Of a stretch of 64,000 nt of DNA, positions 9,944-30,730 are shown piece after piece. The first letter of the stretch is position 1. Each line of letters starts with the position of its first letter. The notes under the pieces were generated by a model. That model was not told where the DNA came from. It saw only the letters and a program-made list of their open reading frames with translations, and did not search any database. The stretch comes from a bacterium (GTDB lineage: Bacteria; Elusimicrobiota; Elusimicrobia; Elusimicrobiales; UBA9959), in contig JAJZOZ010000001.1 of NCBI GenBank assembly GCA_021811405.1, forward strand, positions 5,103-69,102. Direction: 5' to 3'. The position numbers and the translations under genes are program-made.

Positions 9944-10116
9944 GTCCCCACTGCCGGAGATCCCCCCCGGTCCTTATCTGCGGCGGTCCCGCTGCCGTTC
10001 CGCCGCGGCTTTTGAAGGCCGCGCGCGGGTATCATCGCGGGAACGGCATAGCTGACATGGCCGCGAACCGCCGGTTCCCATTGGCAGGGGTTGCGGCCAT
10101 TTGGCATAATAACACG

Positions 10117-11217
10117 ATGTCCCATATAAGGAACACGCAGAAGAACTCCGTCACGGGCAAATTGATGGGGCGCCTCCGGCTTTCCAGGGTGCTCAGCATC
10201 CCGGAGAAGGAGTTCTCCGCGTTCATAGCCGAGATAGAGGGCGACGACCTTTTCGGGGCGCTGGCCCGGCCGGCGCGGACTTCCGAGAAGGTCGTTTCGT
10301 ACAAGAGGTTCCCGCGCGGGACCTGGGCCAGGCAGGTGCAGTTCAACGAGGGGGTTTTCGCGGAAAGGCCTTCCATGGGGGTGCACGAGTTCCTGGCCGG
10401 CCGCGAGGATATCCTGCCCCTGTTGCGGCGCGTCGGAGAGAAGAGCTTCCTGGAGGATTTCCTCTACAGGGAGACTTCCCGCGGCCTCGAGGAGACCGCC
10501 GGCGCCCTGGGGCTGACCCTGGACGAGGCCGGCAGGATCATGGACTTCGTTAACGAGTTCCATCTCAAGCGGGAGATAGAGGGCGGCGGCGCTCCCGCCG
10601 CTTTGCCGGACGCTCTCAAGGAGCGCGGAGCCGACACGCCGGTGGCCCAGATCTACGCGGAAGGCGGGAACATAACCCTGTCCTACCTCTCCCTTTCTTC
10701 CGCCCGGGGCCGCTACGAGATAGATTATGCGCGGCTTAAGGCGCTGGAAAGGACGCTTCCGACGGAAAGGAAAAAGCGTCTCCGCGGCTTGATAGGCAAG
10801 ATGGAGCTGGCCAATATGCGCAAGGGCGTTCTCCACAATATCCTGCTGCAGCTGATAGACTGCCAGCATAAATACCTGATCACCGAGGAGGAGGACGACA
10901 TAAAGCCGGTCTCGCAGCGCGAGATAGCCCGTACGCTGGCGATAAATTCCGGGGTGTTGAACCGCATCGTTTCGGGCAAATCCCTCGCGCTGGCGTCGGG
11001 GCGCGCGGTGCCGATGGGCTCGCTGTTCCTTTCCCGGAAGGACTGGATGAAGGCGGCGCTGGGCAGGCTGCTGGCCGAGCGCGGCGGCGAGTCCCCCGCG
11101 GACGGGGAGCTGGCCGCTCTCCTGCGCGAAAGGACCGGCGTCCGGGTCTCCCGCCGCTCGGTGAACGATTACCGCAGGGAGATAGCCGGGAAACTGCCGG
11201 GGAAGAGGGTCCGCTGA
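10117..11217 (+). CDS. Short, divergent sigma-54 (RpoN)-like factor (~366 aa)
   Basis: The C-terminal region aligns by eye to the sigma-54 DNA-binding domain. IKPVSQREIARTLAINSGVLNRIVSGKSLALASGRAVPMGSLF matches the [42 protein letters not shown] region. The RpoN-box-like VSRRSVNDYRREI matches ARRTVAKYRE. The N-terminus keeps only a remnant of region I (LRLSRVLSIPEKEFSAFIAEIEGDDLF). The start is uncertain (ATG 10117 versus 10012). Confidence 0.65.
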   Translation: MSHIRNTQKNSVTGKLMGRLRLSRVLSIPEKEFSAFIAEIEGDDLFGALARPARTSEKVVSYKRFPRGTWARQVQFNEGVFAERPSMGVHEFLAGREDILPLLRRVGEKSFLEDFLYRETSRGLEETAGALGLTLDEAGRIMDFVNEFHLKREIEGGGAPAALPDALKERGADTPVAQIYAEGGNITLSYLSLSSARGRYEIDYARLKALERTLPTERKKRLRGLIGKMELANMRKGVLHNILLQLIDCQHKYLITEEEDDIKPVSQREIARTLAINSGVLNRIVSGKSLALASGRAVPMGSLFLSRKDWMKAALGRLLAERGGESPADGELAALLRERTGVRVSRRSVNDYRREIAGKLPGKRVR

Positions 11218-11218
11218 T

Positions 11219-12676
11219 ATGGCCGACAAGACCTCAAGATGCAGCTCGCCGTACTGTTTCGACAGGCTCGGCGTGAGGATAATACTGAGCCTCGTCGCCT
11301 GCATAGCGCTCACCAGCGTCGCGGGGCTGTTCCGGGACCTGCGGCATAACAGGCGCTATATCCGCCACCGCGAGGGCGCCAAGGCCTCGTCGCAGGCGGC
11401 GGTGCTGCGCGCGTATCTCGAGCACGAGATGTTCGAGAGCGGCCATGACGGCACCAGGATAGCGCTGGAAGCCGTCAGGGGGCAGCCCAACCTGGAGGAC
11501 CTGCTCATACTGGACTCCAAACGCAAGGTCGTGCGCGCGCTGGACAGGAAGATGGAGGGGCGCACGGTGCCGTCCCCGTCCGCGGACGGCTGGGACGGAG
11601 AGTTCATCCGCATGGATTTCCCGATAAAGGCCAAGAAGGCCTGCTACCGCTGCCACGGCAGGGACAAGCAGCTGCTCGGGTACTTCGAGTTCGTGGTCTC
11701 CACCGTGGAGGCCTACGCCGACCTGAAGCGCTGGCAGCTCTCGCACATCCTGGCGGAGAGCGTCTCCCTCGCCGTCATCTGCGTGCTGGTCATATTCATC
11801 ATAGCGACCATGCTCAACCGCCCTTTGTCGGCCCTTTCGGCGGCCATGGCCAAGGCCGGCGGAGGGGATTACTCCGTGCGCGTTCCGGAGAACGTTTCCG
11901 GGGAGATGGGGGAGCTGGCCAGGCAGTTCAATTCCATGGCCGGGAAGCTGGAGGAGAACCGCGCGGAACTTGAGCGGCTTCACCGGGAGAGCATCTCGCA
12001 CATGGACAGGCTGGTCTCGCTCGGCGAGCTGGCGGCCAGCCTGGCCCACGAGATACGCAACCCGCTCGCCGGCATCGCGGCCGCCATACAGGTGCTGCAG
12101 CGCGACCTGCCCGCGGAGGACCGCCGCTCCTTCGTCCTTACCGAGGTGCTCAGGCAGGTGGCCCGGCTGAACAAGACGGTGGACAATCTGCTGAGCTATG
12201 CCCGGCCGGCGGCGCCGGTGATGTCCAGCGTGTCCCTGCCCGAGACCGCGGCCCGCGTGCTGTCCATCGTGGAGCCGCAGCTCAGGAAGCAGAACGTCTC
12301 GCTGGAAACGGACTGGAGCGGTCCCGTCGGCGCGGTGACGGCCGACCAGGGGCAGATGGAGCAGATACTGCTGAACCTGTGCCTCAATTCCCTGCAGGCG
12401 ATGCCCGCGGGGGGCAGGCTGCGGGTGGGCGTGAGGCCTTCGGACGACGGCTCCGCCGCGGTCCTGGAGGTGTCCGACACCGGCGTCGGGATCCCGGCCG
12501 ACAAGCTGTCCTCCATCTTCAAGCCTTTCTTCACCACCCGCGCCAAGGGCACCGGCCTCGGCCTGGCCATCGTGAAGAAGATAATAGAGTCCCACGGAGG
12601 AAGGATAGAGGTCTTCAGCGAGGAAGGCAAGGGCGCGCGTTTCATGGTGACCCTGCCTTCCGGGCCGGCGGCCTGA
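11219..12676 (+). CDS. Membrane sensor histidine kinase (HAMP-HisKA-HATPase) with a CXXCH haem-c motif in the periplasmic loop
   Basis: Two TM segments flank a ~130-aa loop containing KACYRCHGRD (nt 11642-11656). A HAMP region follows. H-box SLAHEIRNPLAGI. G-boxes DTGVGIP and GTGLGLAIV. Confidence 0.85.
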   Translation: MADKTSRCSSPYCFDRLGVRIILSLVACIALTSVAGLFRDLRHNRRYIRHREGAKASSQAAVLRAYLEHEMFESGHDGTRIALEAVRGQPNLEDLLILDSKRKVVRALDRKMEGRTVPSPSADGWDGEFIRMDFPIKAKKACYRCHGRDKQLLGYFEFVVSTVEAYADLKRWQLSHILAESVSLAVICVLVIFIIATMLNRPLSALSAAMAKAGGGDYSVRVPENVSGEMGELARQFNSMAGKLEENRAELERLHRESISHMDRLVSLGELAASLAHEIRNPLAGIAAAIQVLQRDLPAEDRRSFVLTEVLRQVARLNKTVDNLLSYARPAAPVMSSVSLPETAARVLSIVEPQLRKQNVSLETDWSGPVGAVTADQGQMEQILLNLCLNSLQAMPAGGRLRVGVRPSDDGSAAVLEVSDTGVGIPADKLSSIFKPFFTTRAKGTGLGLAIVKKIIESHGGRIEVFSEEGKGARFMVTLPSGPAA

Positions 12677-12679: not shown

Positions 12680-14059
12680 ATGAAAAAAAGAGTGCTTGTA
12701 GTCGACGACGAGGACCTTATCCGCTGGTCGCTCAAGGACGAGCTGACGCGGGAGGGGTATACCGTGCTGAGCGTGGGCACGGCGGCCGAGGCCATTGAGC
12801 AGCTTTCCCGGGGCGGCGTGGACGTCACCATCTCCGACATCAATCTGGGCGACGGCAGCGGCCTGGACATCCTCAGGTACGCCAGGGAGAACCTGCCGTC
12901 CATGCCGGTGGTGCTGATGACGGCCTACGGCGACGTGAACGGCGCTGTGGACGCGATGCGCAGCGGCGCGGCCCACTACATCTCCAAGCCCTTCGACCTG
13001 TCAGTGCTGCGCATGGAGCTGGAAAAGGTGTGCGAGACCAGCAGCCTCCGGGACCAGGTGCTCGACACGCAGGAGCGGCGCCGGCGCCGCTACAACTTCG
13101 GCTCCATAATAACCGGCGACGAGGGCATGAAGCGCGTTATCTCCGAGGCGGTCATGATGGCGGCCAATCCTTCCGCCACCGTGCTGATACAGGGCGAAAG
13201 CGGCACCGGCAAGGACCTGATGGCGCGGGCGCTGCATTACGAAAGCCCGAGGGCGGGCAAGCCGTTCCTCGAGATAAGCTGCACGGCCATCCCGGAGAAC
13301 CTGCTGGAGAGCGAGCTGTTCGGCTACGAGAAGGGGGCCTTCACGGACGCCAAAGGGCAGAAGAAGGGCTTCTTCGACACCGCCGACGGCGGCACCGTGT
13401 TCCTCAACGAGATAGGCCACATGCCGCTGACCCTGCAGGCCAAGCTGCTGCGGGTGATAGAGGACAAGGTGTTCATGCGGCTGGGCGGCACCGAGGAGAC
13501 CGCCTGCGACGTGCGCATCATAGCGGCCACCAACGAGGACCTGCAGGAGGCCGTCAGGAAGGGCGGCTTCAGGGGGGACCTGTATTTCAGGCTTAACGTC
13601 CTGTCCGTCAGCCTGCCGCCGCTCAGGGAGCGCAAGGGGGACATACTGCCCCTGGCCGGGCATTTCCTGGCCCGCTTCAGCGGGGAGATGCGCAAGGACG
13701 TCCCGGTCCTTTCGGAGGAGGCGCAGGCCGTGATGACGGCCTATCGCTGGCCCGGCAACATCAGGGAGCTGCGCAACGTGATGGAGCGGGTGATGATACT
13801 CGGCGCGGGCAGGGAGATAGCCGGCGTATGGATGCGGGAACAGATAGGAAAGACCTCCGGCCTGGGCGCCGCCCCGTCCGGAGAGGTCTGCTTCAGGCTG
13901 CCGCCGGAGGGGATCTCGCTGGAAGCTGTAGAGAAGGACTTCATCAGGCAGGCCCTGGAATCTGCCGGCGGCAACCAGGTGAAAGCGGCGCGCCTCCTGG
14001 GCATCAGCCGGGACGCCTTGCGCTACCGGCTGGAAAAGCACGGGCTGCGCTATTCCTGA
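12680..14059 (+). CDS. Sigma-54-dependent response regulator (NtrC family enhancer-binding protein)
   Basis: Receiver domain (VLVVDDE..DINLGDGSG). AAA+ Walker A GESGTGKD. GAFTGA-type loop EKGAFTDA. The motifs ESELFGYE and RELRN. C-terminal Fis-type HTH (AARLLGISRDALRYRLEKHG). Confidence 0.9.
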   Translation: MKKRVLVVDDEDLIRWSLKDELTREGYTVLSVGTAAEAIEQLSRGGVDVTISDINLGDGSGLDILRYARENLPSMPVVLMTAYGDVNGAVDAMRSGAAHYISKPFDLSVLRMELEKVCETSSLRDQVLDTQERRRRRYNFGSIITGDEGMKRVISEAVMMAANPSATVLIQGESGTGKDLMARALHYESPRAGKPFLEISCTAIPENLLESELFGYEKGAFTDAKGQKKGFFDTADGGTVFLNEIGHMPLTLQAKLLRVIEDKVFMRLGGTEETACDVRIIAATNEDLQEAVRKGGFRGDLYFRLNVLSVSLPPLRERKGDILPLAGHFLARFSGEMRKDVPVLSEEAQAVMTAYRWPGNIRELRNVMERVMILGAGREIAGVWMREQIGKTSGLGAAPSGEVCFRLPPEGISLEAVEKDFIRQALESAGGNQVKAARLLGISRDALRYRLEKHGLRYS

Positions 14060-14078: not shown

Positions 14079-14094
14079 TGGCAGGGTTGCTGCG
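14079..14094 (+). promoter_or_regulatory. Candidate sigma-54 (-24/-12) promoter upstream of the 15-haem cytochrome operon
   Basis: TGGCAGGGTTGCTGCG has GG and GC with correct 12-nt register (consensus TGGCAC-N5-TTGCA). It lies 45 nt upstream of ATG 14139, directly after the EBP gene. Confidence 0.6.
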
Positions 14095-14138: not shown

Positions 14139-15452
14139 ATGCGTATCCAGCGTTATATCCCGATCATGCTCCTGCTGTGCGCCGCCGCGCGCGGCCGGGC
14201 GGCCGCGGCGCCGGTTTCACCTGACGTTATAACCACTACGCCCGCCTGCGTGGAGTGCCATAAGAAGGTGGTCTCGTCCAAGTTCACGCACGGTCCGGTC
14301 GGAGTGAAAATGTGCAGGGTGTGCCACTCGGACGAGAAACCGGCACAGGACCCCGCGAAGCATCATGTCTTCTCGTTCCCGAAGCCGCAGCCGGAACTGT
14401 GCCTGGAATGCCACGTGGACGTGCGCGAGAGCCTCAGGTCCGGCAAGATGACGCACGGCGCCATCGAGGCCGGCGGCTGCACTTCCTGCCACGATCCGCA
14501 CGGCTCCGGCCAGAAGTTCTTCCTGCGCGGGGAGAACATGGACGCGCTCTGTTCCAACTGCCACGGGAAAAAGACCGGCGGCGCCGTGGTCCACCGGCCG
14601 GTGAAGGCCTCGTGCATGCTGTGCCACGAGCCGCACGCGTCCGGCGGCAGCCACCTTCTCAAGACCGACACCCCGGAACTCTGCCTGGGCTGCCACCAGC
14701 AGGTGAAGACGGAGCTTTCCGGCAAGTACGTCCACGGCCCGGTGCAGACCGGCTGCCAGACCTGCCATGACCCGCACAGCGCGCCCAAGCCGTACCTGCT
14801 GAAGTCCGACGCGAAGAAGGAGCTCTGCCTGGGCTGCCACGCGGACATGGCCAAGGCGCTGAAGAACGCCAAGCGCCCGCACCCCGCCGTGGAATCGGCC
14901 GGCTGCATCGGCTGCCACAGCCCCCACGCGTCGGGGCAGCCGAAGATGCTGCTGAAGCCGATGAAGGAGCTCTGCCTGGGCTGCCACGCGGACAAGGCCG
15001 CGGAGCTGGGCAGCAAGTTCCTGCACGGCCCGGTGCGCCTGAACGAATGCCAGGGCTGCCATGACCCGCACGGGGCGGACAACCCCAACATCCTCAAGGA
15101 ATATTTCCCGGAGGACTTCTACAACTCGTACAAGGAAGGCCTGTACGCCCTGTGCTTCGAATGCCACGAGAAGAACATCGCCAGCGAACCCAGGACCGCC
15201 AAGCTGACCAACTTCCGCAACGGCGACGTGAACCTGCATTACGTCCACGTCCATTCCGAGAAGGGACGCAGCTGCAAAGCGTGCCACCAGGTGCACGGCG
15301 GCCGCCAGGAGAAGCACGTCCGGGAGAGCGTGCCGTTCGGCTCCTGGCCGCTGCCCATCGTGTACAGGAAGACCGCCACCGGCGGCAGCTGCAACGTCGG
15401 CTGCCATAACCCCAAGTCCTACGACCGCGTGAAAGAGGTGGAGAACAAATGA
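14139..15452 (+). CDS. Multihaem c-type cytochrome, 14 CXXCH plus 1 CXXXCH (437 aa)
   Basis: Signal peptide MRIQRYIPIMLLLCAAARGRAAAAP. Motifs counted in the translation: CVECH, CRVCH, CLECH, CTSCH, CSNCH, CMLCH, CLGCH, CQTCH, CLGCH, CIGCH, CLGCH, CQGCH, CFECH, CKACH and CNVGCH. Confidence 0.9.
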   Translation: MRIQRYIPIMLLLCAAARGRAAAAPVSPDVITTTPACVECHKKVVSSKFTHGPVGVKMCRVCHSDEKPAQDPAKHHVFSFPKPQPELCLECHVDVRESLRSGKMTHGAIEAGGCTSCHDPHGSGQKFFLRGENMDALCSNCHGKKTGGAVVHRPVKASCMLCHEPHASGGSHLLKTDTPELCLGCHQQVKTELSGKYVHGPVQTGCQTCHDPHSAPKPYLLKSDAKKELCLGCHADMAKALKNAKRPHPAVESAGCIGCHSPHASGQPKMLLKPMKELCLGCHADKAAELGSKFLHGPVRLNECQGCHDPHGADNPNILKEYFPEDFYNSYKEGLYALCFECHEKNIASEPRTAKLTNFRNGDVNLHYVHVHSEKGRSCKACHQVHGGRQEKHVRESVPFGSWPLPIVYRKTATGGSCNVGCHNPKSYDRVKEVENK

Positions 15453-16417
15453 GATACATCGTAAGAGCGTTCGTCGTGCTGGCCTTCGGCCTGCCGTTCT
15501 GCGCGGGCGTCTCCCGCTGCGAAGCCAACCCGCTGCGGAACCTGGAACTGGGGGCCGCCGCTTTCCCGTTCTCCCTGCCGGACACGAACGGGAACGCGGT
15601 AAGCCTGGACAAGTTCAAGGGGCGGCCCGTGGTGGTCTGTTACTGGCGTGAAGGCCAGTTCTACTCCAAAAAGATGCTCGAGGTCATGACGCGCGCGCAG
15701 GCCAAGTTCGGCGGCAAGGGCGTGGAGTTCCTCTCCATCACAAGGACCGCGGGCGCCGAAGCCCCAAAGGTGTCCACGATGCCTTTCCCGGTGCTGCTGG
15801 ACGACCAGGAGAAGGTCTACGGGGATTACGGCCTGTTCATACTGCCTACCACGTTCGTGCTGGACGGCGGGCACCGCCTCAAGGCTTATTTTTCCAGCTA
15901 CCAGGAGGAGTCCGGACCGGAGCTGGACAAGATACTGTCGGAGATGCTCGGCCTAAAGGCGACGCCGGCGCCCGCCCCGCGCTACGCGGCGGTGCAGGGC
16001 ATGGCTGACCCGGAGCTCAACCTCGCCCGCGAGCTGCTGAAGGAGGGCAAGGCTGCCGAGGCCCTGCCGCTGCTGGAGAAAGGGCTGCGCGGCGCGGCGT
16101 CAGGCGACGCCGCGGAGCTGAAGCTGCTGTCCGCCCAGGCGCTGATGCAGCTGTCGCGCCTGGAGGAGGCCAAAGCGAGGCTGGAGGGCTGCCTGAAGGA
16201 CGATCCCGCCTCGCACGAGGCGCAGCTGCTGCTGGGCAGGACCCTTTTCCTGATGGGCCGCTACGAGCCCGCGGAAGAGGCCCTCAAAAAGTCCATGGGC
16301 CTGAACCCGCATTCCGAAAAGGCGCATTATTACCTCGGGGAGCTGTATGAGAAGACAGGCCGCAAAGATCTGGCGCTGGCCGAATACCGCGCGGCGCTTG
16401 AGCGTATATACAGGTAG
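15449..16417 (+). CDS. Exported thioredoxin-fold (TlpA/ResA-like) domain lacking the CXXC motif, fused to TPR repeats
   Basis: Signal peptide. The redoxin-like stretch FSLPDTNGNAVSLDKFKGRPVVVCYWREGQFYS stands where WxxWCxxC is expected. The C-terminal half is TPR-like (AEALPLLEKGL.., AHYYLGELYEKTGRKDLALAEYRAALE). ATGA overlap with the upstream gene. Confidence 0.65.
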   Translation: MRYIVRAFVVLAFGLPFCAGVSRCEANPLRNLELGAAAFPFSLPDTNGNAVSLDKFKGRPVVVCYWREGQFYSKKMLEVMTRAQAKFGGKGVEFLSITRTAGAEAPKVSTMPFPVLLDDQEKVYGDYGLFILPTTFVLDGGHRLKAYFSSYQEESGPELDKILSEMLGLKATPAPAPRYAAVQGMADPELNLARELLKEGKAAEALPLLEKGLRGAASGDAAELKLLSAQALMQLSRLEEAKARLEGCLKDDPASHEAQLLLGRTLFLMGRYEPAEEALKKSMGLNPHSEKAHYYLGELYEKTGRKDLALAEYRAALERIYR

Positions 16418-16928
16418 CGCCGCCGCGCTGCTGCTGGCCGGCTGCCTGGCGTCCGTCCGCCTGGCTTCCGTGCACGCGCCCTACGGGCGGCATAATTGCG
16501 AGGCCTGCCACGACGTGGGCGGCACGCTGGCCAGGGGGGTTTCGGCCTCTTCCTATTCGGACCGCGTGAAGGAAGAGGCCGCCGGCGGGGACTATTCCCT
16601 TTCGCCCGGCGAGGAAGTCCCCTCGCTTCTCCGCTACCGGGTGGACAGGCTTTGTTTCCAGTGCCACCGGGAGCTGGACCCGGCCTCTCCGGGCTACGAG
16701 GGGAAATGGCTGCACGGTCCGTTCCAGGCCGGCGTGTGCCTGGCCTGCCATCAACCGCACGAATCCGCGAACCCCCGTCTTCTGGTGGCCTATCCGGTGG
16801 AGAAGCTCTGTTCCATGTGCCATTCCGGGTTCCACGGCAAGGAGGGGGCCTCCCGTTATCCCGGGAAGCCATGCCTGGCCTGCCATTCCCCGCATTCCCA
16901 GGAGAAAGCCGCCAGGACCCCGGACTGA
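16347..16928 (+). CDS. Pentahaem c-type cytochrome, probable lipoprotein
   Basis: Lipobox LLAGC. CXXCH motifs CEACH, CFQCH, CLACH, CSMCH and CLACH. The start is uncertain: ATG 16347 overlaps the upstream gene by 71 nt, and an alternative TTG at 16398 gives MSVYTGSAAALLLAGC. Confidence 0.7.
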   Translation: MRRQAAKIWRWPNTARRLSVYTGSAAALLLAGCLASVRLASVHAPYGRHNCEACHDVGGTLARGVSASSYSDRVKEEAAGGDYSLSPGEEVPSLLRYRVDRLCFQCHRELDPASPGYEGKWLHGPFQAGVCLACHQPHESANPRLLVAYPVEKLCSMCHSGFHGKEGASRYPGKPCLACHSPHSQEKAARTPD

Positions 16929-16933
16929 GGGGG

Positions 16934-17698
16934 TTATTTCAGTTTTTTCAGGCTTTCCCGCACCTGTATGGTGAACGGATGCGCCGGTCCCAGCGCTTTT
17001 TCCGCCAGGGCCAGGGCCGTCTTGTACCGCGCGCGGGCCTCGGCCGGCCTGTCCAGGTCGCGGTAAAGGTCGCCCAGATTGCTCAGCGTGATGGCCATGT
17101 TGGGGTTGCCGTGGCCGAAGCTGCCGCCGCAGAGGTCTACGGCCCTCTTGAAAAGAGCCTCGGCGCGCGCGGGGTCCTTGCGCTGGTGGCAGACCTTCGC
17201 CAGGTTGTTCAGCGTGGCGACCACGTCGGAGATGTCGGCTCCGGGGGTCTTGTCGTAATAGGAGAGGGTGGTCTCGAAGGCTTTCTGGGCCGCCTCCAGC
17301 TTGCCTTCTTTCTGGTAAACGGCTCCCAGATTGTTCAGCGCGGTCATGGCCTGGGCCGAGGTCTCGCCGTAGGATTTCGCCGCCAGGGAGAACACCTCGC
17401 CGGCCAGCGGCTCGGCGGCGGAGAAATCGCCGCGGTCATAGTACAGCTTGGCGAGCAGGCCGACGTTGCCGGCCAGCCGGATGTCTCCGGACCGGAAGAT
17501 CTTCCTGGCCAGTTTCAGCGCTTTCCCGGCCTCCTGCACGGCCATCTCTCCCTGTCCATGCTTCGAATATACCGCGGCTTTATCCATGCTCTCCTGCCAG
17601 GCCGGCAGGTCCTTTTCGCTGTTCACGCAGGCGGAAAGCGCCAGGATGATGATAGCCGGGACTAGAGCGGCGCGGTAGCGGATGTTATAAGAGGGCAT
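16934..17698 (-). CDS. TPR-repeat lipoprotein
   Basis: Signal peptide plus lipobox ALSAC. Repeated TPR_12-like units (LNNLGAVYQKEGKLEAAQKAFE, LNNLAKVCHQRKDPARAEALFKRA, LSNLGDLYRDLDRPAEARARYKTA). Confidence 0.8.
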   Translation of the reverse strand: MPSYNIRYRAALVPAIIILALSACVNSEKDLPAWQESMDKAAVYSKHGQGEMAVQEAGKALKLARKIFRSGDIRLAGNVGLLAKLYYDRGDFSAAEPLAGEVFSLAAKSYGETSAQAMTALNNLGAVYQKEGKLEAAQKAFETTLSYYDKTPGADISDVVATLNNLAKVCHQRKDPARAEALFKRAVDLCGGSFGHGNPNMAITLSNLGDLYRDLDRPAEARARYKTALALAEKALGPAHPFTIQVRESLKKLK

Positions 17699-17816
17699 TC
17701 GTATCTCCTTAAGAGCTTGTTGCGTAGATCCAGAACCTGCGGCAATTGCGGCTTTTGGGCTGCGGCTTCGTCGCTTACGGCCCCGGCTTCGAGGCCGCCG
17801 ATGGCCTGTTATCGCG

Positions 17817-17833
17817 TGGCAGCATTGCTGCCA
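17817..17833. promoter_or_regulatory. Candidate sigma-54 (-24/-12) promoter, perfectly palindromic
   Basis: TGGCAGCATTGCTGCCA reads TGGCAG-N5-CTGC on the + strand and TGGCAG-CAATG-CTGC on the - strand. It lies 20 nt upstream of ATG 17853, and 119 nt upstream of the divergent TPR gene start at 17698. Confidence 0.55.
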
Positions 17834-17852
17834 TGATAATAAATGACGCGTT

Positions 17853-18227
17853 ATGCTGTCTATATTGATCGTGGACGATGAGCCGCTGATAAACTGGTCG
17901 CTGGGCCAGGTCTTCGAAGGCGCCGGCTACGCCGTGACCCTGGCCGAAAGCGGCGAGGAGGCCGAGGCGCTGGCCATGGCCGGCCGTTTCGACGTGGTAT
18001 TGACGGACGTTAAGATGAAAGGCATGACCGGGTTCGAGCTCCTCCGGCGGCTGAAAGCGGGCCTTCCGGGGGTCAAGGTGGTCCTGATGACGGCTTTCTC
18101 CGGAGAGGCGGAAAAGGACGCCTCCTTACGGGAAGGCGCCGACGATTTCATACGCAAGCCTTTCAATGTGGCGGAGGTGGTCCAGCGGGTGCGGGCGCTG
18201 CTCGCAGGGGCGGAGTGCGCGTTTTAA
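17853..18227 (+). CDS. Single-domain response regulator (CheY-like receiver)
   Basis: ILIVDDE. Phospho-acceptor context DVVLTDVKMKGMTG. The motifs LMTAF and KPF. Confidence 0.85.
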   Translation: MLSILIVDDEPLINWSLGQVFEGAGYAVTLAESGEEAEALAMAGRFDVVLTDVKMKGMTGFELLRRLKAGLPGVKVVLMTAFSGEAEKDASLREGADDFIRKPFNVAEVVQRVRALLAGAECAF

Positions 18228-18248
18228 CGCGATTTGCGTCAAATCGCG
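18228..18248. repeat. Perfect inverted repeat CGCGATTT-GCGTC-AAATCGCG immediately after the receiver gene stop
   Basis: 8-bp arms with a 5-nt loop starting 1 nt after the TAA stop. The following sequence, CATTGTTTG, is only weakly T-rich. It could be an attenuating hairpin or an operator. Confidence 0.4.
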
Positions 18249-18307
18249 CATTGTTTGCTATGATATTACGGAAATTCCGTGCATCTGTGATCTGGAGCCG
18301 ACCTTCC

Positions 18308-19297
18308 ATGCGCCATAGTATCAGAAAGAACCCGTGCGGCCCCCGCCGCCTGCTCCGCGCCGCTGCTGTCCTCTGCCCGCTGCTCTGTCTTGCCGCCCTT
18401 TCCTGGGCCGGGAAGAAGGACAACGCGCCCGACCCTTTTTACGCCAGGCACACGGCCGAGGCCGGAAAGTTCGCCGGTAAGGGGCACGTCCATACTCCGG
18501 TGGCGAAGAACGTCTGCAGCCCGTGCCACGCGTCGGCGGAAGACCCGAAGAAGCTCTCCGCCGAGGGCAATGAGCTGTGCTTCTCCTGCCACTCCGCGCT
18601 GAAGAAGGACCTTAAGAAGAAGAAGGTCCACGAGCCCTTCTCCGGCATGCCCTGCTCCACCTGCCACGACCCGCATTCCTCCGGAGAGGCCGCCAACCTC
18701 GTTTCCCCGGTCAGGGAGCTCTGCTCCATGTGCCATGACGTCTCAGCTACCGGTACGGCGGCCGCGCACGGCGGCGTCAGGACGATGAAGAAGGACTGCA
18801 CGCTGTGCCATTCCCCGCACGCCTCCGACAACGGCAAGCTGCTGCTGGAGGGAAAAACGCATCCCTCTTTCGAAGCCGGCTCCTGCGGTACCTGCCACGC
18901 CGAGCCGGGCCCGGACGGCGAGGCGAAGCTTTCCGGTTCCGCGGGCAGCGCGTGCCTTATGTGCCACGGGGACCTGCAGGACGCCATGAAGGAGAAGTCG
19001 GCGCACCGGCCTTTCCTGTCCGGCGCCTGCGAGAAATGCCATTTTCCCCATGTAGGCAAGTTCCGGGCCTTCACGCTCTCGGAGCCAGAGCTGATGTGCC
19101 GCTCCTGCCACGCGGGCATCCAGGATAACGGCCACCCGGTGGTCGGACACCTTTCCCACGATCCCGGCAAAAAGAATCCCCTGGACAAGTCACGGCCGTT
19201 CGACTGCGTTTCCTGCCACAAGCCGCACGCTTCCGCTTTCGGAAAGCTGCTGGTGAAAGAGCCGGGGGAACTGTGCCTGGCCTGCCATGAGCAGTGA
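18308..19297 (+). CDS. Multihaem c-type cytochrome, 11 CXXCH (329 aa)
   Basis: Start taken at ATG 18308 (MRHSIRKNP..LLCLAALSWAG signal). Motifs: CSPCH, CFSCH, CSTCH, CSMCH, CTLCH, CGTCH, CLMCH, CEKCH, CRSCH, CVSCH and CLACH. Confidence 0.85.
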   Translation: MRHSIRKNPCGPRRLLRAAAVLCPLLCLAALSWAGKKDNAPDPFYARHTAEAGKFAGKGHVHTPVAKNVCSPCHASAEDPKKLSAEGNELCFSCHSALKKDLKKKKVHEPFSGMPCSTCHDPHSSGEAANLVSPVRELCSMCHDVSATGTAAAHGGVRTMKKDCTLCHSPHASDNGKLLLEGKTHPSFEAGSCGTCHAEPGPDGEAKLSGSAGSACLMCHGDLQDAMKEKSAHRPFLSGACEKCHFPHVGKFRAFTLSEPELMCRSCHAGIQDNGHPVVGHLSHDPGKKNPLDKSRPFDCVSCHKPHASAFGKLLVKEPGELCLACHEQ

Positions 19298-19381
19298 GGA
19301 ACTCCGGGGGGCGGGGAAAAGGCGCGAGCAATAGAGCGCTGATTTGCGGGTACAGCGGGGCTTATCCTTAAAGGAGTTTTT

Positions 19382-20428
19382 ATGCGGTCCATCGTGCTGT
19401 CTTTGGCGGTTATGGGCGGTCTCTTCGCGGTGTACGGGACGCCGGCGGCGGCCGCCGCCGAAGCGAAAGAAATAGTCTTCCCGGCTCCGCCCGACGTGCC
19501 GCGCATAAAATATCTCAGAAGCCTCGCGCGGGAATCCGATATTTCCGGCCGGAAATCCGGCATGTGGGGCAAGTTCCTCAACGCCATCACCGGCAAGGAG
19601 GCGTCCAACATCTTCATGACCAGGCCGTACGACGTCTGCGCCGACACCGGCAGCGTCTACGTCTCGGACAGCGAGGGCGGGGCCGTGGTGGCGTTCAACC
19701 TGCAGAGCGGGAAAGCCTACAAGATCGGCGGCACGCTGGAGGGGAGGCTGGTCTCCCCGATGGGAGTGGCGCTGGATTCCTCGGGCAGGCTTTTCGTGGC
19801 GGATTCGGCCGGGGACACGATAAAGGTCTTTTCAGTGAACGGAGATTTTCTTTTTCGCTTCGGCCTTTCCGGCTCCGGGCCCGGGCAGTTGAAAAAGCCG
19901 CTGGACGTGACCTATGACCGCGGGCGCGACAGGATACTGGTGGCGGACAGCGGCAACGCGCGGATACAGATTTTCGACACCGCCGGAAAGTTCATAGCCC
20001 AGATAGGGAGCCGCGGGACCGCCGACGGCCAGTTCTCCATTCCGGTCGGGGTGGCCGTGGCCCCGGACGGGCGGGTGATCGTCTCTGATACCATGCTCTG
20101 CCGGGTGCAGGAATTCTCACCTGACGGGAAGTTCCTCCTGAAGTTCGGCGAGCAGGGGGACAGCCTGGGCTACTTCGCCCGGCCCAAGGGAGTGGCCACG
20201 GACAGCGACGGGAACATCTACGTGGCGGACGCGCTTTTCAGCGCGATACAGATCTTCGATCCGAAGGGCGAGCTGCTGATGCATTTCGGGGCCGAGGGCG
20301 GCGAGCCCGGCGCTTTCCAGCTGCCCATCGGCGTCTACGTGGACGACCAGGACAAGGTCTATATCGCCGATTCTTTCAACCAGCGCGTCCAGGTCTTCCA
20401 GTACCTGAAGCAGCCTAAAGCGCCTTAG
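19382..20428 (+). CDS. Exported NHL-repeat six-bladed beta-propeller protein (paralog 1 of 4)
   Basis: RBS AAAGGAG and a signal peptide. Repeated NHL-type units (P.GVA.D..G.I.V.D..N.R.Q.F). Conserved N-terminal VFPAPPDVPRIKYL and C-terminal QRVQVFQYLK. Confidence 0.85.
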   Translation: MRSIVLSLAVMGGLFAVYGTPAAAAAEAKEIVFPAPPDVPRIKYLRSLARESDISGRKSGMWGKFLNAITGKEASNIFMTRPYDVCADTGSVYVSDSEGGAVVAFNLQSGKAYKIGGTLEGRLVSPMGVALDSSGRLFVADSAGDTIKVFSVNGDFLFRFGLSGSGPGQLKKPLDVTYDRGRDRILVADSGNARIQIFDTAGKFIAQIGSRGTADGQFSIPVGVAVAPDGRVIVSDTMLCRVQEFSPDGKFLLKFGEQGDSLGYFARPKGVATDSDGNIYVADALFSAIQIFDPKGELLMHFGAEGGEPGAFQLPIGVYVDDQDKVYIADSFNQRVQVFQYLKQPKAP

Positions 20429-20478
20429 GACCGGCCGGGGCGCCGGAATATGACGCCGATCGCGGAGCCTGCGGTCCC

Positions 20479-20508
20479 TTGACAACGGCGCGGCCGCGGG
20501 GGTATACT
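20479..20508 (+). promoter_or_regulatory. Sigma-70-type promoter
   Basis: TTGACA-N18-TATACT, about 30 nt upstream of GTG 20539. Confidence 0.55.
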
Positions 20509-20538
20509 TCGCTAAGAACGCGCCGTACCGGAGGAGCG

Positions 20539-21102
20539 GTGAAAACCAAGGTCATACTTCTTTTCATGTCGGTGACGCTGCTGCTGGCTTATTTCGCGCA
20601 TAGACGCGGGAAGCCGGTGACGGTCCCTTCCGACCTGCGCGATTCCGTGATAACCGTTCATGGCTCTTCCGGGGTTCCCGGTTTGGCGCCGCAGTGCCTG
20701 TCCGGCGGCCTTCCGCACAGGGCCGCGGCCGCCGCCGCCTGGGACGGCGGCGGAGCGCTCGCCGCCGGCGTTCAGTCTTCCCCGATGGCGCAGGGAGTAT
20801 ATTCCTGCCTGTCCTGCCATGACGGCACGGTGGCGCCGGCGGATAAGTCGTATTCGGCCGCGCTCGGCTTTTCCGGCGGCGCGCCGGAGGGCGGCTCCGC
20901 CGGAAATCACCCGGTGGGCGTGGATTACGGGGAGGCCATGCGCGCCCGCCCAGGCGAGTACAATGACCCGCATTCCAACCCGGATATCAGGCTTTCCGGG
21001 AACAAGGTCACGTGTCTTTCCTGCCATGCCAGCGAACTGACGGCCGGCCTGCAAATGCCCGGCGGCCAGACCGCTCTTTGTCTCTCCTGTCACAGGCTTT
21101 GA
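20539..21102 (+). CDS. Small c-type cytochrome, 3 CXXCH, divergent member of the tetrahaem family with a degenerate first haem site
   Basis: GTG start preceded by GGAGGAG. TM/signal segment VILLFMSVTLLLAYFA. The motif CLSCH occurs three times, and GNHPVGVDY is present. The position of the first motif reads CLSGGLPH. Confidence 0.7.
   Translation: MKTKVILLFMSVTLLLAYFAHRRGKPVTVPSDLRDSVITVHGSSGVPGLAPQCLSGGLPHRAAAAAAWDGGGALAAGVQSSPMAQGVYSCLSCHDGTVAPADKSYSAALGFSGGAPEGGSAGNHPVGVDYGEAMRARPGEYNDPHSNPDIRLSGNKVTCLSCHASELTAGLQMPGGQTALCLSCHRL
20994..21102 (+). repeat. Direct repeat copy A (3' end of the trihaem cytochrome gene)
   Basis: About 90% identical by eye to 28422-28530, with a perfect 59-nt core (21016-21074 = 28444-28502). 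Confidence 0.9.
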
Positions 21103-21450
21103 GCGCGCTTACCGCCTGCTCCGGCTTTTTGCCGGACCGGCCGGAAGATCGCGTGCCTTTTACCGGGCGTTCACTGATCGATGGATACGCTGAGGGCTTG
21201 TTTTCTGGCGTCCGCTTCATTGCCTGTTCCGCGGATCGCGGAGTCCGCCCGCGGCGGACGCCGCCCCTTGCCCGCATACCGCGTGTATGCCCGCTCATCG
21301 CGGCTTGTTCCCGGACAGCGCCGCTGAGCGCCACCCACAGCCGTCTCCGGCCTATGGCCGTGCCAGGAGCTATGCCCGTCGAACAGCCAAATCCGGGCCG
21401 CCATAAGTCATATTGCTTATGCGCGGGCCGGTTAATGAGGAAATACTGTT

Positions 21451-22512
21451 ATGCGTAATCCACCCGCCAGACCCGTCCAGCGTAGTTTATGGAGCGCGTT
21501 CGCCGCCAAATGCGCCATTGCCCTTTTCGCCGGCAGTTTGGCGGGGCCGATCGCCGCGCATGGCCAGGACATCGTCTTTCCGCCGGCTCCGGATGCTCCG
21601 CGCGTGCGCTATCTGTACAGCCTCAGCGGGCCGCAGGACATCAAGCCGAAAGTGTCCGGGTTCAGGGCTTTTCTGCTGAAGCTTGCCGGTAAAGGCCCGC
21701 GGTCCGGCCAGGCCATGGTGCGGCCTTACGGCGTGTACGCCGCCTCCGGCCGCGTCTTTGTAGCCGATACCGGCGGCATGGCCGTGGCGGTGTTCGACCG
21801 CGGCGCAAAACGGCTGACGAGGATCGGCGGTTCGCGGGAGGGCAGCCTTATCAATCCGATCGATGTTGCAGCCGATGAGGCCGGCAATATCTACGTTACG
21901 GATTCCGGGCTGAATCTGGTCAAGGTTTACGGGCCGGACGGGAACTTCCTGAGGCAACTGGGCACGGCTTCGGGACTGTCGCATCCCACGGGCATCGTTT
22001 ACGACGCCGGCCGCAAACGGCTGATCGTCGCCGATACGGGGAACTCCCGCCTGGTCCTGTTCGACGCGGGCGGGAAAATGTCGGGGACTATAGGCCGCCG
22101 GGGAACGGAAAAGGGGGACATGTCGGTGCCGATAAATCTGGCGCTGGACAGGGAAGGCGATATCTATGTCGTGGAGAACATGCTCAGCCGCGTCCAGATA
22201 TATTCTCCGGAGGGGGTTTTTCTTTCGCAGTTCGGCAAAAACGGCGACCTGCCGGGCTATTTCGCCAGGCCAAGAGGCATAGCCCTTGACAGCGACGGCA
22301 ATATTTATGTCGTTGACGCCTTGATGAATATGGTGCAGATTTTCGACCGGGAAGGGAAACTGCTGCTGTTCTTCGGAGGCGGCGGCGCGGAGCCGGGCAC
22401 GTTCCAGCTGCCTGCCGGAATTTTCATAGATCCGGAGGACCGTATTTATGTGGTGGATTCCAACAATAGGCGTGTCCAGGTTTTCCAGTATCTGAAGCCG
22501 CCTCCGAAATAG
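21451..22512 (+). CDS. Exported NHL-repeat beta-propeller protein (paralog 2 of 4)
   Basis: Signal peptide. IVFPPAPDAPRVRYL. NHL units. C-terminal RRVQVFQYLKPPPK. Confidence 0.85.
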   Translation: MRNPPARPVQRSLWSAFAAKCAIALFAGSLAGPIAAHGQDIVFPPAPDAPRVRYLYSLSGPQDIKPKVSGFRAFLLKLAGKGPRSGQAMVRPYGVYAASGRVFVADTGGMAVAVFDRGAKRLTRIGGSREGSLINPIDVAADEAGNIYVTDSGLNLVKVYGPDGNFLRQLGTASGLSHPTGIVYDAGRKRLIVADTGNSRLVLFDAGGKMSGTIGRRGTEKGDMSVPINLALDREGDIYVVENMLSRVQIYSPEGVFLSQFGKNGDLPGYFARPRGIALDSDGNIYVVDALMNMVQIFDREGKLLLFFGGGGAEPGTFQLPAGIFIDPEDRIYVVDSNNRRVQVFQYLKPPPK

Positions 22513-22625
22513 GGCTTGCGGCAGAAAACCGTTTGTGCGGGATTTCCCCCGGTCTGCGTGAAATCACCCGGATTTGCGGCGGCCGGAACAGCGGTTTCCA
22601 TTGGGAAAGGCGCGTTGCGGGGTGT

Positions 22626-22641
22626 TGGCAGAAACGCTGCA
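22626..22641 (+). promoter_or_regulatory. Candidate sigma-54 (-24/-12) promoter
   Basis: TGGCAGAAACGCTGCA has correct GG/GC register. It lies 88 nt upstream of ATG 22730. The palindrome CTTGACATGTCAAG (22661-22674) lies in the presumed 5' UTR. Confidence 0.65.
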
Positions 22642-22729
22642 CTAAGGATATATGGCGGGGCTTGACATGTCAAGTGCCGCGGCCGCGGCGGGGAAAATGC
22701 GCGGGGGACAGAGGAAACGGGGAGGCGTT

Positions 22730-23365
22730 ATGAAGAAACATGAATCCGTGTGGGCGGGCATGCTTATAGCGTGTGCCCTTGTTCTGCCGGCGCGGCCGGC
22801 GCGCGCAGTGGTTGCGGGTTCCCTGCACGACTTCACCGCGGCCCCGTATTCGCTGCTCACCACCTGTTCGGGCTGCCACGTGCCGCACCAGACCAAGACG
22901 AATGTCCCGTTATGGGCGCACGCGACATCCACGTATACCTACACATTGTATAACCAGAACGCGGCGTATGTCGTGAAAAGCCCCGCCTTCACTTACGATG
23001 CGTCCCCGAGCGCCCTCACGGGCAGCAAATCGCTGTTATGCCTGGGCTGCCATGACGGTACGGTGGCGGTATCCGGCACGAACTATATCACGCAGGCCTC
23101 GGCCTCCTGGATACTTTATGACGCCGGAGCGAAGGTGGGCGGCCAGGCGAGCGCCAATCCGTCGGCCGGCCTGAAAGGCAGCCATCCTATCGGTGTCGTC
23201 TACCAGGCGGTGGCGGGGAAATATAATGATATCTCGCTCGACCCCGATGTGAAGCTGGACAGCACCAAGGTCCAATGCACTTCGTGCCACAACCCGCACA
23301 ACCTGTTCCCCAAGATGCTGGTGAAATCAGGCGCCGCGCTCTGCACCACCTGCCATATAAAGTAA
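22730..23365 (+). CDS. Tetrahaem c-type cytochrome (211 aa), cassette A
   Basis: Start at ATG 22730 (RBS GGGGAGG, signal MKKHESVWAGMLIACALVLPARPARA). Motifs CSGCHVPH, CLGCHDG, CTSCHNPH and CTTCHIK, plus NVPLWAH and GSHPIGVVY. Confidence 0.85.
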   Translation: MKKHESVWAGMLIACALVLPARPARAVVAGSLHDFTAAPYSLLTTCSGCHVPHQTKTNVPLWAHATSTYTYTLYNQNAAYVVKSPAFTYDASPSALTGSKSLLCLGCHDGTVAVSGTNYITQASASWILYDAGAKVGGQASANPSAGLKGSHPIGVVYQAVAGKYNDISLDPDVKLDSTKVQCTSCHNPHNLFPKMLVKSGAALCTTCHIK

Positions 23366-23437
23366 CGCGCGGCAGGAACGGCCCGCCGGGGTTTTTAAGC
23401 ACGGGGGCCGCTGTTTCCGGGAATCCAGGATGATAAA

Positions 23438-24490
23438 ATGCGCTGGAAAACGGCCGGCATCAGTCTGAAAACGCTGAAGTTTCCAGCCATGCTGCTGGCT
23501 ATAGCGTTCACGGCAGCCGCCGCGGCGTCCGTTGGCGGGCGTGTCTGGCCCCCGGCCCCGGATAAGGCGCGGATCCGGCTGATAGCCGTGCTTCCCGAAG
23601 CGGCGCAGGAGGACAATGCCGGGCCGCTTTTTCTGAAAATTTTACGCCGCCTGGCCGGCCTGAAGCCGGGCAAGCGCCGCGGTCCGGGGTTTGTGCGCCC
23701 CACAGGCGTGGCCGTGCGCGGCCGCGTCGTCTATGCCGCAGACCCGGGAGCCGGAGGCGTTGTCATCTATGACACCGAAAAACGTTCCTGCAGCCTGATT
23801 CCGGCCAACCGCCGCAACCGCCTGCCTTCTCCGGTAGGAGTGGCGGCGGCTTCCGACGGGAGCATATTCGTCAGCGATTCCCGGCTGCGGAAAGTTCTTC
23901 TGTTCGACGCCGGAGGCCGCGCCAGCGGCGAACTTAAACCCCCGCCGGGCGCTTTCATGCGGCCGGGTGGTCTGGCTCTGGACGAGGCCCGCGGCCGGCT
24001 GTGGGTGGCCGACGCTGCGGCGCATATGATCTACGCCTATTCTCTCGGCGGAGAATACCTGTTTTCCATCGGCGCGCGGGGCCAGGCGCCCGGCAGTTTC
24101 AATTATCCCACCTATCTCTGGGCCGATACGCGCACAGGAGCCCTGTGGGTCTGCGACTCCGGCAACTTCCGCGTCCAGTCCCTTGACGCCGCCGGGCGGC
24201 CGACAGGGGCTCTGGGGCGCAACGGCAACTGCCCCGGTTATCTGGCGCGGCCGCGCGGCGTGGCCGCAGATTCCGAAGGCCACGTCTATGTGGCGGACGG
24301 CGCGATGTCCGCCGTGCAGATATTTGACGAGAGCGGGCGGTTATTGCTGTATTTCGGAGAGCGGGGCGGCCAACCGGGCGAGTTCTATCTGCCGGGGGGG
24401 GTGTTCATTGACGGCGACGACAGGATATATGTCGCCGATACCTATAACGCCAGGGTGCAGGTATTCCAGTACCTGAAGGACGCGCCATGA
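23438..24490 (+). CDS. Exported NHL-repeat beta-propeller protein (paralog 3 of 4), cassette A
   Basis: Signal peptide. VWPPAPDKARIRLI. NHL units. C-terminal ARVQVFQYLKDAP. ATGA overlap with the next gene. Confidence 0.85.
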   Translation: MRWKTAGISLKTLKFPAMLLAIAFTAAAAASVGGRVWPPAPDKARIRLIAVLPEAAQEDNAGPLFLKILRRLAGLKPGKRRGPGFVRPTGVAVRGRVVYAADPGAGGVVIYDTEKRSCSLIPANRRNRLPSPVGVAAASDGSIFVSDSRLRKVLLFDAGGRASGELKPPPGAFMRPGGLALDEARGRLWVADAAAHMIYAYSLGGEYLFSIGARGQAPGSFNYPTYLWADTRTGALWVCDSGNFRVQSLDAAGRPTGALGRNGNCPGYLARPRGVAADSEGHVYVADGAMSAVQIFDESGRLLLYFGERGGQPGEFYLPGGVFIDGDDRIYVADTYNARVQVFQYLKDAP

Positions 24491-26367: not shown

Positions 26368-26434
26368 ATCCCGCCGTTGCGCCGGGAGAAGGTGATGCCG
26401 GCCGGAATGGTTCCCGGGTTGGGAGGGCGAACTC

Positions 26435-28108: not shown

Positions 28109-28421
28109 CCCCCATGTTCTATAAGCGCGCCGGCGCCGATTTGTGTTTTACCGCCTTCGGCGCGCTGTCCGGGTATGCCTGAAAAACCGGCGCCCCCTCT
28201 TCCAAGGCCATAAGCCTTTAACGAGGTGAAAACGCAAATATTAAAATTAGTATATTCATCATTTTACCGCCGGCTATTCTTTCGGCGATCCGTTCCCCTG
28301 AACAGTTCCCGTACCGCAGCTCTTCCTGAATTTGCCCGCGGTTCTATTACAACTTCACGGTCAGGCTTAAAATATGGATCTTGCCCGGGTCGCCTATCTT
28401 GCTGGCGAAAAGGCGTAGTTG

Positions 28422-28530
28422 TTCCGGCGACAAGGTGACCTGCCTTTCCTGCCATGCCAGCGAACTGACGGCCGGCCTGCAAATGCCCGGCGGCCAGACC
28501 GCCCTCTGCCTCGCCTGCCACAGGCTGTGA
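28422..28530 (+). pseudogene. Orphan 3' fragment of a cytochrome gene (direct repeat copy B)
   Basis: Encodes ..GDKVTCLSCHASELTAGLQMPGGQTALCLACHRL*, nearly identical to the C-terminus of the 20539-21102 product. The frame is closed by TGA at 28327. There is no signal peptide and no ATG or RBS. An AT-rich patch lies upstream. Confidence 0.75.
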
Positions 28531-28563
28531 GCTCGCCCCGCCGCCGGCCGCCCCTCCGGGCGG

Positions 28564-29841: not shown

Positions 29842-29862
29842 GGTTTGGCCGGAGGAACGCGC

Positions 29863-30687
29863 TCAGCTGAAATTGTGGAAGCCGCGGAAAAAGAGATTTA
29901 TGACGGTCATGGAGAGCAGGGCCAGGGCGAACCCCAGGATGGACAGGACGGCGAACTTCTTGCCGTACCAGCCCGCCGCCTCCCTCAGCCCGAGGCCGGC
30001 GCCGTACACCAGCCAGATGAGCGCGGTGCCGATGAGCTTCGGGTCCACGTAGGAATGCCCCGGGAACGCCCTGGCCAGCCACGCCATGCCGACCGCTATC
30101 GCCACGGTCAGGAAGAAAAAGCCCGTCGCCGTCGAGATGAAGCTCAGCCTTTCGAGTACCTCCAGGCTGGGCAGGCGCTCGTAGACGACGCCGAGCCGGC
30201 TGGACTTTATCTCGTGATAGAGCATCAGGTAGAGGAAGCCGTAGACGGCCGCGATCGCGAGCGCCGCGTAGCCGAGCAGCGCGCCGGAAACGTGTATCCC
30301 GAGAAGCCGGCTCTTCAGGACTGGATCCACGTCGGTCCTGTTCACGATCAGCAGCGAGGAGGCGAGCTGGAAGAGCAGCGGGAGACCGAGGATGAAACAG
30401 CCGGTGCCCTTCACCTTGGTCCAGTACTCCAGCAGGAAGTACGCGAGCGAAATGCTGAAGGCGATGACCGAGAGTATCTCCGGAAGGCTGGTGATGGGCG
30501 GGTGTCCCAGAAAGACCGTCCGGGCGAGCAGATAAGTGAGATGGACGGAAAGCGCGGCGATAAGCAGCGGCGTCTTGGCGGTCTTCGCGACGGGGCTCGC
30601 GCTGAAGAACGCCCTGGCGTACGCCGCTACTGTTGCCAGGTAAAGGAGCGGCAGCAGAGCGTTCAACGCGGTTATTGCATGGTTCAT
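29863..30687 (-). CDS. Cytochrome c assembly (CcsA/HemX-like) integral membrane protein
   Basis: About 8 predicted TM segments immediately upstream of hemA, as in hemA-hemX arrangements. The start at ATG 30687 is supported by the promoter at 30731-30759, so the track start at 30759 is rejected. Confidence 0.6.
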   Translation of the reverse strand: MNHAITALNALLPLLYLATVAAYARAFFSASPVAKTAKTPLLIAALSVHLTYLLARTVFLGHPPITSLPEILSVIAFSISLAYFLLEYWTKVKGTGCFILGLPLLFQLASSLLIVNRTDVDPVLKSRLLGIHVSGALLGYAALAIAAVYGFLYLMLYHEIKSSRLGVVYERLPSLEVLERLSFISTATGFFFLTVAIAVGMAWLARAFPGHSYVDPKLIGTALIWLVYGAGLGLREAAGWYGKKFAVLSILGFALALLSMTVINLFFRGFHNFS

Positions 30688-30730
30688 TGCCGTGTGCCGT
30701 AACGAAAAAACATACTGACCGGCCGGTTCA

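Follow-up and report, generated by a model that had tools for sequence, protein, structure and literature searches.

This report concerns a gene at 10117-11217 (+) in a 64-kb stretch of contig JAJZOZ010000001.1 (the window), from an uncultured Elusimicrobia bacterium, and its 366-aa product, which we call s54L. We propose that s54L is a functional sigma-54-type factor that recognises -24/-12 promoters within a self-contained module of kinase, activator, sigma factor and promoters, and we give this a probability of about 0.6. We favour it because the protein has the promoter-reading residues of sigma-54, the equivalent of E. coli R336 and an N-terminus resembling Region I (RI) that is under purifying selection, and also because it is almost obligatorily paired with an intact bacterial enhancer-binding protein (bEBP) and has a -24/-12 site directly downstream. 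We infer further that s54L depends on its activator, and that it is the sigma factor that uses the -24/-12 promoters.

A sequence-only reading of this stretch had described a highly divergent sigma-54 relative with its promoter-reading half intact, co-transcribed with a kinase and an activator and lying beside -24/-12 promoters confined to the adjacent gene cluster, and that description holds. It had also called the protein a truncated paralog. We do not retain the truncation, as about 365 aa is the normal length in a large family, and we regard paralogy as no more than possible.

A compact family with a sigma-54-like C-terminal half

The only Pfam match in s54L is to Sigma54_DBD (33.4 bits against a cutoff of 22.8, residues 233-356). 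Conservation and domain counts given here refer to an alignment of 84 full-length members, with 41 N-terminal fragments in addition, and all 84 match Sigma54_DBD and no other sigma-54 domain. The helix-turn-helix (HTH) and an RpoN-box-like segment, VSRRSVNDYRREI, are both present, as had been predicted. In a profile-profile comparison by hhalign, for which the canonical profile was a small alignment of E. coli and three other sequences, residues 122-366 align to residues 230-477 of E. coli sigma-54 with a probability of 99.6% and E = 7.5e-24, covering the end of the core-binding domain (CBD), the long helix, the HTH and the RpoN box. On this comparison residues 122-366 are clearly homologous to sigma-54. 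The only relative of solved structure that can be found by sequence is Aquifex sigmaN (5ui5), matching s54L residues 204-362 and recovered at E = 9e-26 in a profile search of PDB with the family. The full-length AlphaFold2 (AF2) model has a predicted local distance difference test score (pLDDT) of 89 and a predicted template modelling score (pTM) of 0.88, and every one of its 27 best Foldseek matches in PDB is a sigma-54 chain, with E values as low as 9e-8.

With regard to individual residues, R235 in the long helix is equivalent to E. coli R336, the activator-bypass site, and is present in 78 of the 84 members. R283 in the HTH, equivalent to R383, is present in every member, and R346 and R347 in the RpoN box, equivalent to R455 and R456, in 80 each. 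Q250 (equivalent to Q351) and the RpoN-box residues Y352 and R353 are also conserved. What RI, R336, the HTH and the RpoN box do in sigma-54 is documented, and R336 is known to lock the polymerase closed complex through contacts between RI and the long helix (PMC7057263).

Word-indexed protein searches gave almost no matches. The family came to light when 1.84 billion representative proteins were searched exhaustively with HMMER: 161 clusters (at 50% identity) have E < 1e-30 and 331 have E < 1e-10, and almost all of these proteins are of 340-390 aa and align end to end. The members with a named organism are six cases in Elusimicrobia or Elusimicrobiota metagenome-assembled genomes (MAGs), including the MAG that matches the window, and three in Candidatus Omnitrophica or Omnitrophota MAGs, with no other phylum represented. 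By sequence, then, s54L is a member of a conserved compact (about 365 aa) sigma-54-like family typical of Elusimicrobiota and Omnitrophota MAGs. The sequence-only reading had allowed that a form typical for its phylum would weaken the case for a special paralog, and to that extent its picture has to be modified. Members are annotated as hypothetical proteins by NCBI and, for some, as 'specialized sigma54-like protein' by JGI, and our literature searches found no description of a compact or sigma-54-like family in Elusimicrobia or Omnitrophota. The N-terminus is under purifying selection: dN/dS is 0.18 over the first 96 codons of s54L compared with L007, a fragment of 94% identity from an Elusimicrobia MAG and the sole locus obtained from a profile scan of genome contigs.

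These data bear on the suggestion that s54L is a decaying or redundant remnant of sigma-54, like the inactive RpoN-like protein of Neisseria, and that a normal RpoN reads the promoters. The very low score with the rpoN equivalog model and the loss of recognisable activator-interacting domain (AID) and CBD are what one would expect of a remnant. However the full-length relatives, in at least 161 clusters, are constant in length, the AF2 fold is confident, the DNA-reading residues are invariant and the operon structure is conserved across two phyla, all of which, with the low dN/dS, makes decay quite improbable. The Neisseria protein is also a degenerate sigma-54 relative, but the helices for reading the -12/-13 region are missing from it, it shows no activity and no bEBP accompanies it, whereas s54L has an intact HTH and its family is nearly always paired with a bEBP.

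Two members are much longer, P0104 (L010 3638-6157) and P0130, of 839 and 914 aa, with C-terminal extensions of about 500 aa in which no Pfam domain was found. Fusions to the activator were considered, and the extensions carry no bEBP. At L010 the bEBP gene is upstream of the s54L gene, not downstream, and about 1 kb from the s54L gene is a gene of the CT398/HP0958 (FlgZ) type with a DUF164 zinc ribbon (7136-7867, -). HP0958 is reported to stabilise RpoN in Helicobacter pylori (PMC3372290).

The length of 366 aa given in the sequence-only reading depends on the start at ATG 10117 in an open reading frame (ORF) that runs from 10012 to 11217 (+). It is hardly credible that this is an ordinary full-length rpoN starting upstream, or an artefact of assembly or gene calling, although the frame is open for 35 codons upstream to a TTG at 10012 and the start was chosen by one gene caller (P0001). 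The 35-codon extension has no counterpart or homology in any relative, restores nothing resembling sigma-54 or its Region I, and has within it a conserved sigma-70-type promoter; a terminator of the preceding gene lies at about 9918-9945. The Met at 10117 and the residues that follow are shared with P0002 (locus L001, 62% identity) and with the L007 fragment, and relatives start at the equivalent Met, 8-20 residues ahead of a conserved L.GR.KL motif.

The sigma-70-type promoter, in sequence and geometry, is kept in L001 and L007. Its extended -10 element (TGgCATAAT) ends 6 nt before the s54L ATG, and there is no Shine-Dalgarno sequence in 10081-10119. The mRNA of the operon is probably leaderless, as suggested by the position of the -10 element. 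A sigma-54-type promoter for the s54L gene itself was considered and rejected: TTGGCAGGGGTTGC has the spacing GG-N8-GC and does not match, and the TGGCATAAT block is better read as the extended -10. At L006, unlike the window, a -24/-12 site does precede the s54L gene.

Linked activators and -24/-12 promoters

The spacers of the operon are as had been reported: the s54L stop codon (11215-11217) is 1 nt from the kinase ATG, and the kinase stop codon is 3 nt from the bEBP ATG. A response-regulator bEBP adjoins s54L in all of the first nine contexts examined. A metagenome scan, in which ORFs were called by script and then searched with hidden Markov models, added 80 loci, and a response-regulator bEBP is on the same strand within 3.2 kb of s54L in 58 of the 60 informative loci. 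The gene order is s54L-kinase-bEBP in 47 loci, s54L-bEBP in 5, kinase-s54L-bEBP in 2 and bEBP-s54L in 1, and in 3 loci another gene intervenes between s54L and the bEBP. After dereplication at 70% identity the linkage is found in 9 of 11 clusters, the exceptions being L051 and L060. One further Elusimicrobiota locus has s54L and bEBP directly adjacent. In the Omnitrophota locus L093 four extra genes (for PqqD, a radical SAM-SPASM protein and two others) lie between s54L and the kinase-bEBP pair; the PqqD / radical SAM-SPASM / NTP_transf_5 cassette (7083-10204) is of a type resembling those for maturation of ribosomally synthesised and post-translationally modified peptides.

The L1 loop of the partner bEBPs is GSFTGA in 31 cases, GAFTGA in 12, GAFTDA in 6, and GAYTDA and GAFTSA in one each, so that from their sequences the partners keep an intact sigma-54-contacting loop. 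The window bEBP has GAFTDA and not GAFTGA (residues about 219-224). We considered GAFTDA as a loop that had co-evolved family-wide with s54L, but it is limited to a sub-clade and most partners have GSFTGA or GAFTGA.

The + strand of the window has four exact TGGCAG-N4-GCTGC sites. All lie between genes, and each heads a transcription unit of the cytochrome/NHL cluster downstream of the operon (Table 1). With one mismatch allowed the number rises to 10, where 3.0 +/- 1.7 would be expected. Homologous sites are found in L001, at the homologous positions. The site upstream of the response-regulator gene, TGGCAGCATTGCTGCCA, is a perfect 17-nt palindrome that fits the promoter pattern on both strands, and is kept in L001 (10576-10592). 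TTGCGGC was examined as a possible activator-binding repeat, and is not enriched (16 observed, 19.6 expected).

Most other family loci have a TGGCA-N7-TGC site 80-180 nt past the bEBP stop codon. In the largest metagenome clade this site is TTTTGGCAAGAAAATTGCA, ahead of a response-regulator gene of about 350 aa (MKPVLIVEDEAIMRESLRDWL...), and the promoter is conserved in L020, L023, L029, L042 and about 40 other metagenome loci. The second response regulator behind this promoter suggests a regulatory cascade.

The sequence-only reading had drawn attention to a non-standard -12 element, GCTGC. The four exact sites bear this out for the window, but the CTGC variant is confined to the lineage of the window and L001, other family loci having TTGC or ATGC. 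The more general deviation in the family is a purine in place of C after TGGCA: the base is G in 11 of 12 sites from six lineages, and A or G in the large clade, and the canonical C is rare. The recognition helix reads SGV(L/V)NR in the window/L001 lineage, compared with the usual (P)S(T/L/S)(V/I)(S/C)R, but the covariation of helix and -12 variant would be a single event and is only a lead.

Table 1. Coordinates of s54L, its operon and the associated promoters and gene cluster
Feature	Position	Strand	Remarks
Sigma-70-type operon promoter	10081..10110	+	TTGGCA, 18-nt spacer, TG-n-CATAAT
Compact sigma-54-like gene (s54L)	10117..11217	+	ORF, Pfam, alignment, AF2 model
RI-like N-terminus	residues ~1-50		
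Unknown small domain	residues 51-121		
Single CBD-like HTH unit plus beta region	residues 122-203		
Long helix	residues 216-249		R235 = E. coli R336
HTH	residues 267-285		R283 = R383
RpoN box	residues 344-353		
HAMP-HisKA-HATPase sensor histidine kinase	11219..12676	+	Pfam
NtrC-type response regulator/bEBP	12680..14059	+	Pfam: Response_reg, Sigma54_activat, HTH_8
-24/-12 promoter TGGCAGGGTTGCTGCG	14079..14094	+	45 nt upstream of multihaem cytochrome gene 14139; homologous site in L001 at 6889
Palindromic -24/-12 site TGGCAGCATTGCTGCCA	17817..17833	both	upstream of response-regulator gene 17853
-24/-12 promoter TGGCAGAAACGCTGCA	22626..22641	+	upstream of cytochrome gene 22652; homologous site in L001 at 13318
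-24/-12 promoter TGGCAGGAATGCTGCA	31138..31153	+	upstream of multihaem cytochrome with signal peptide, likely start near 31233
Presumed target cluster	14139..38593	+	multihaem cytochromes, NHL beta-propellers, AhpC-TPR, single-domain response regulator, ResB/CcsA biogenesis

The mechanism we propose has four steps. The s54L-kinase-bEBP operon would be transcribed from the sigma-70-type promoter, probably as a leaderless mRNA. The RpoN box of s54L would then read TGGCAG at -24 and its HTH GCTGC at -12 at the four promoters of the cytochrome/NHL cluster, where RNA polymerase would be held in the closed complex. The NtrC-type activator would be phosphorylated by the HAMP kinase, and its GAFT(G/D)A loop would engage the RI-like N-terminus of s54L and bring about ATP-driven promoter opening.

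The presumed target cluster is about 25 kb in length and includes at least six multihaem cytochromes (Paired_CXXCH), four NHL beta-propellers, an AhpC-TPR fusion, ResB/CcsA and a B12-radical SAM gene. Downstream of the cytochrome gene with its likely start near 31233 are genes for an NHL protein, a cytochrome, ResB, CcsA and a radical-SAM protein. In content the cluster resembles gene sets for extracellular electron transfer, which is unusual for Elusimicrobia. It is interrupted at 28564-30759 by hemA and a CcsA-like gene on the - strand, and this pair is about 17 kb downstream of s54L in the window, whereas in L001 (42-2849) it is directly upstream of the s54L gene and divergent from it. From these differing positions the cytochrome cluster has been rearranged between the window and L001.

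The N-terminal half and the case for a DNA-binding regulator

The claim that s54L lacks most of Region I does not hold as it was worded: there is no Sigma54_AID match, but a segment of about 50 aa with an RI-like motif is there. The first 50 or so residues line up, weakly, with residues 1-50 of Region I (hhalign, P = 0.004), with the same length and position and a shared pattern L.L..(E/D)(F/L)...I..(I/L)E.(D/N)P(L)(F/L). The conserved motif of the family is L.GR.KL...L.E.EF...I..IE.DPLF, in which E41, F46 and L49 are each found in at least 80 of the 84 members. This likeness is suggestive, not proof. The N-terminal 212 residues modelled alone have a pLDDT of 82, and residues 11-40 score 89-95 in the full-length model compared with 72-85 in the N-terminal one. 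Because of this difference we think that segment 11-40 may pack on the C-terminal half, and the models fit an arrangement like that of RI on the long helix of sigma-54.

The 'condensed middle region' of the sequence-only reading is apt in the sense that there is one HTH-like unit where the canonical CBD has two. In the hhalign comparison the only part of the canonical CBD that aligns is C-terminal, E. coli 230-300, and the HTH-like unit at 121-148 fits both canonical repeats alike (E. coli 155-185, P = 0.0014; 232-256, P = 0.0017).

Several observations weigh against a sigma factor, and they are best taken together. Sigma54_AID and Sigma54_CBD are matched by none of the 84 full-length members and, even at E <= 10, by none of the 41 N-terminal fragments, and the first 120 residues of s54L match no known domain. 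A Foldseek search with the N-terminal 212-residue model gave nothing significant, the best match being to ArsR-type winged helices at E = 0.06, and the sigma-54 CBD structure 2k9l reached only E = 2.3. Since the HTH-like unit matches both canonical repeats equally well, the sequences indicate that the family holds one CBD-like unit in place of two. With the rpoN equivalog model TIGR02395, s54L reaches 40.5 bits where the cutoff is 277.35, and matches only the C-terminal third of the model. Binding of s54L to core RNA polymerase is something that we propose from the genomic context, namely the adjacent bEBP and the intact L1 loops, and the absence of a recognisable core-binding domain is the main weakness of our interpretation. 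With regard to the activator, Walker B in the window bEBP (residues about 241-244) is FLNE instead of FLDE, an Asp to Asn change shared, among 55 partner bEBPs, only with the L001 ortholog, and it might slow or impair ATP hydrolysis. Finally, these promoters could in reality be read by a canonical sigma-54 encoded at another place in the genome.

The main alternative is accordingly that s54L is no sigma factor but a stand-alone DNA-binding regulator derived from the DNA-binding half of sigma-54, which occupies the -24/-12 sites as a repressor, placeholder or decoy, or assists the neighbouring bEBP, while a canonical sigma-54 encoded elsewhere initiates transcription. The failure of Pfam to detect a core-binding domain or Region I, the resemblance of the N-terminal model to generic winged-helix folds only, and the absence of half of the canonical CBD repeat structure are all in keeping with such a regulator. 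However the R336 equivalent is conserved in nearly all members, and the RI-like N-terminus together with the intact GAFTGA-type loops fits a target for remodelling rather than a simple repressor. Canonical RpoN, moreover, is reported to be missing from the first two Elusimicrobia genomes examined. We therefore consider the regulator unlikely, and continue to prefer a functional sigma-54-type factor.

No canonical rpoN was found in the 64-kb window or in 716 kb of family loci, a sample too small to decide the matter, and we would put at roughly even odds that s54L is the sole sigma-54-type factor in this genome. In the ORF at 48857-50314 a kinase domain of the aminoglycoside-phosphotransferase type is joined to a RapZ C-terminal domain. 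Its surroundings were considered as a possible remnant of an rpoN operon, but there is no lptB, hpf or ptsN nearby.

Relation to known sigma-54 factors and significance

In comparison with canonical sigma-54 (RpoN/SigL), s54L has 245 homologous C-terminal residues with the equivalents of R336, R383 and R455/R456 kept, and it is likewise associated with bEBPs and GG-N10-GC promoters. It differs in being of about 365 aa and not 400-500, in having no detectable AID or CBD, with one of two CBD repeats absent and an unclassified domain in the first 120 residues, and in an RpoN box of the form SRRS(V/I)N.YR, where canonical proteins have ARRTVAKYR. It is also in an operon with its kinase and bEBP, whereas canonical rpoN is beside lptB/hpf/ptsN.

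Aquifex aeolicus sigmaN (398 aa; PDB 5ui5) is another sigma-54 that is short by nature, its Region II being almost absent. However its CBD is complete, with two subdomains, and its Region I is canonical, unlike s54L, and its alignment covers only about residues 165-364 of the s54L family profile. Sigma-54-type factors dedicated to particular activators and promoter subsets have a precedent in RpoN paralogs with cognate activators, such as RpoN1-4 of Cereibacter (Rhodobacter) sphaeroides and RpoN1/2 of Ralstonia and Bradyrhizobium (PMC11999139, PMC4371752, Francke 2011). Those paralogs are full-length, have three domains and coexist with one another, whereas the architecture of s54L is reduced.

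We also put forward, tentatively and with the odds somewhat against it, a wider proposal, in which many Elusimicrobiota and Omnitrophota would have no sigma-54-type initiation factor other than s54L; on the strength of their first genomes, Elusimicrobia were counted as lacking sigma-54. s54L would then operate with a re-modelled Region I and a minimal core-binding module, some half of the canonical CBD in extent, and would have evolved jointly with its kinase, its activator and the promoter variant TGGCAR...YTGC into a portable, self-contained switch. If this were true the phyletic map of sigma-54 would be redrawn and the smallest natural sigma-54 architecture defined.

Sigma-54 stands alone among the bacterial sigma classes in needing an activator with ATPase activity, and its arrangement in three regions is considered almost invariant. 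A widespread natural family in which the half that reads promoters and locks the closed complex is kept, but the core-binding region is halved and the N-terminus unrecognisable, would reveal what sigma-54 can do without. Such a family would also account for the working of bEBPs in lineages whose annotation shows no RpoN, and would provide a compact set of sigma factor, activator and promoter, with slightly shifted promoter specificity and perhaps orthogonal to the canonical factor. In this uncultured Elusimicrobia bacterium, s54L is likely to be the switch that regulates a large multihaem cytochrome/NHL cluster, and clusters of this type are associated with extracellular electron transfer.

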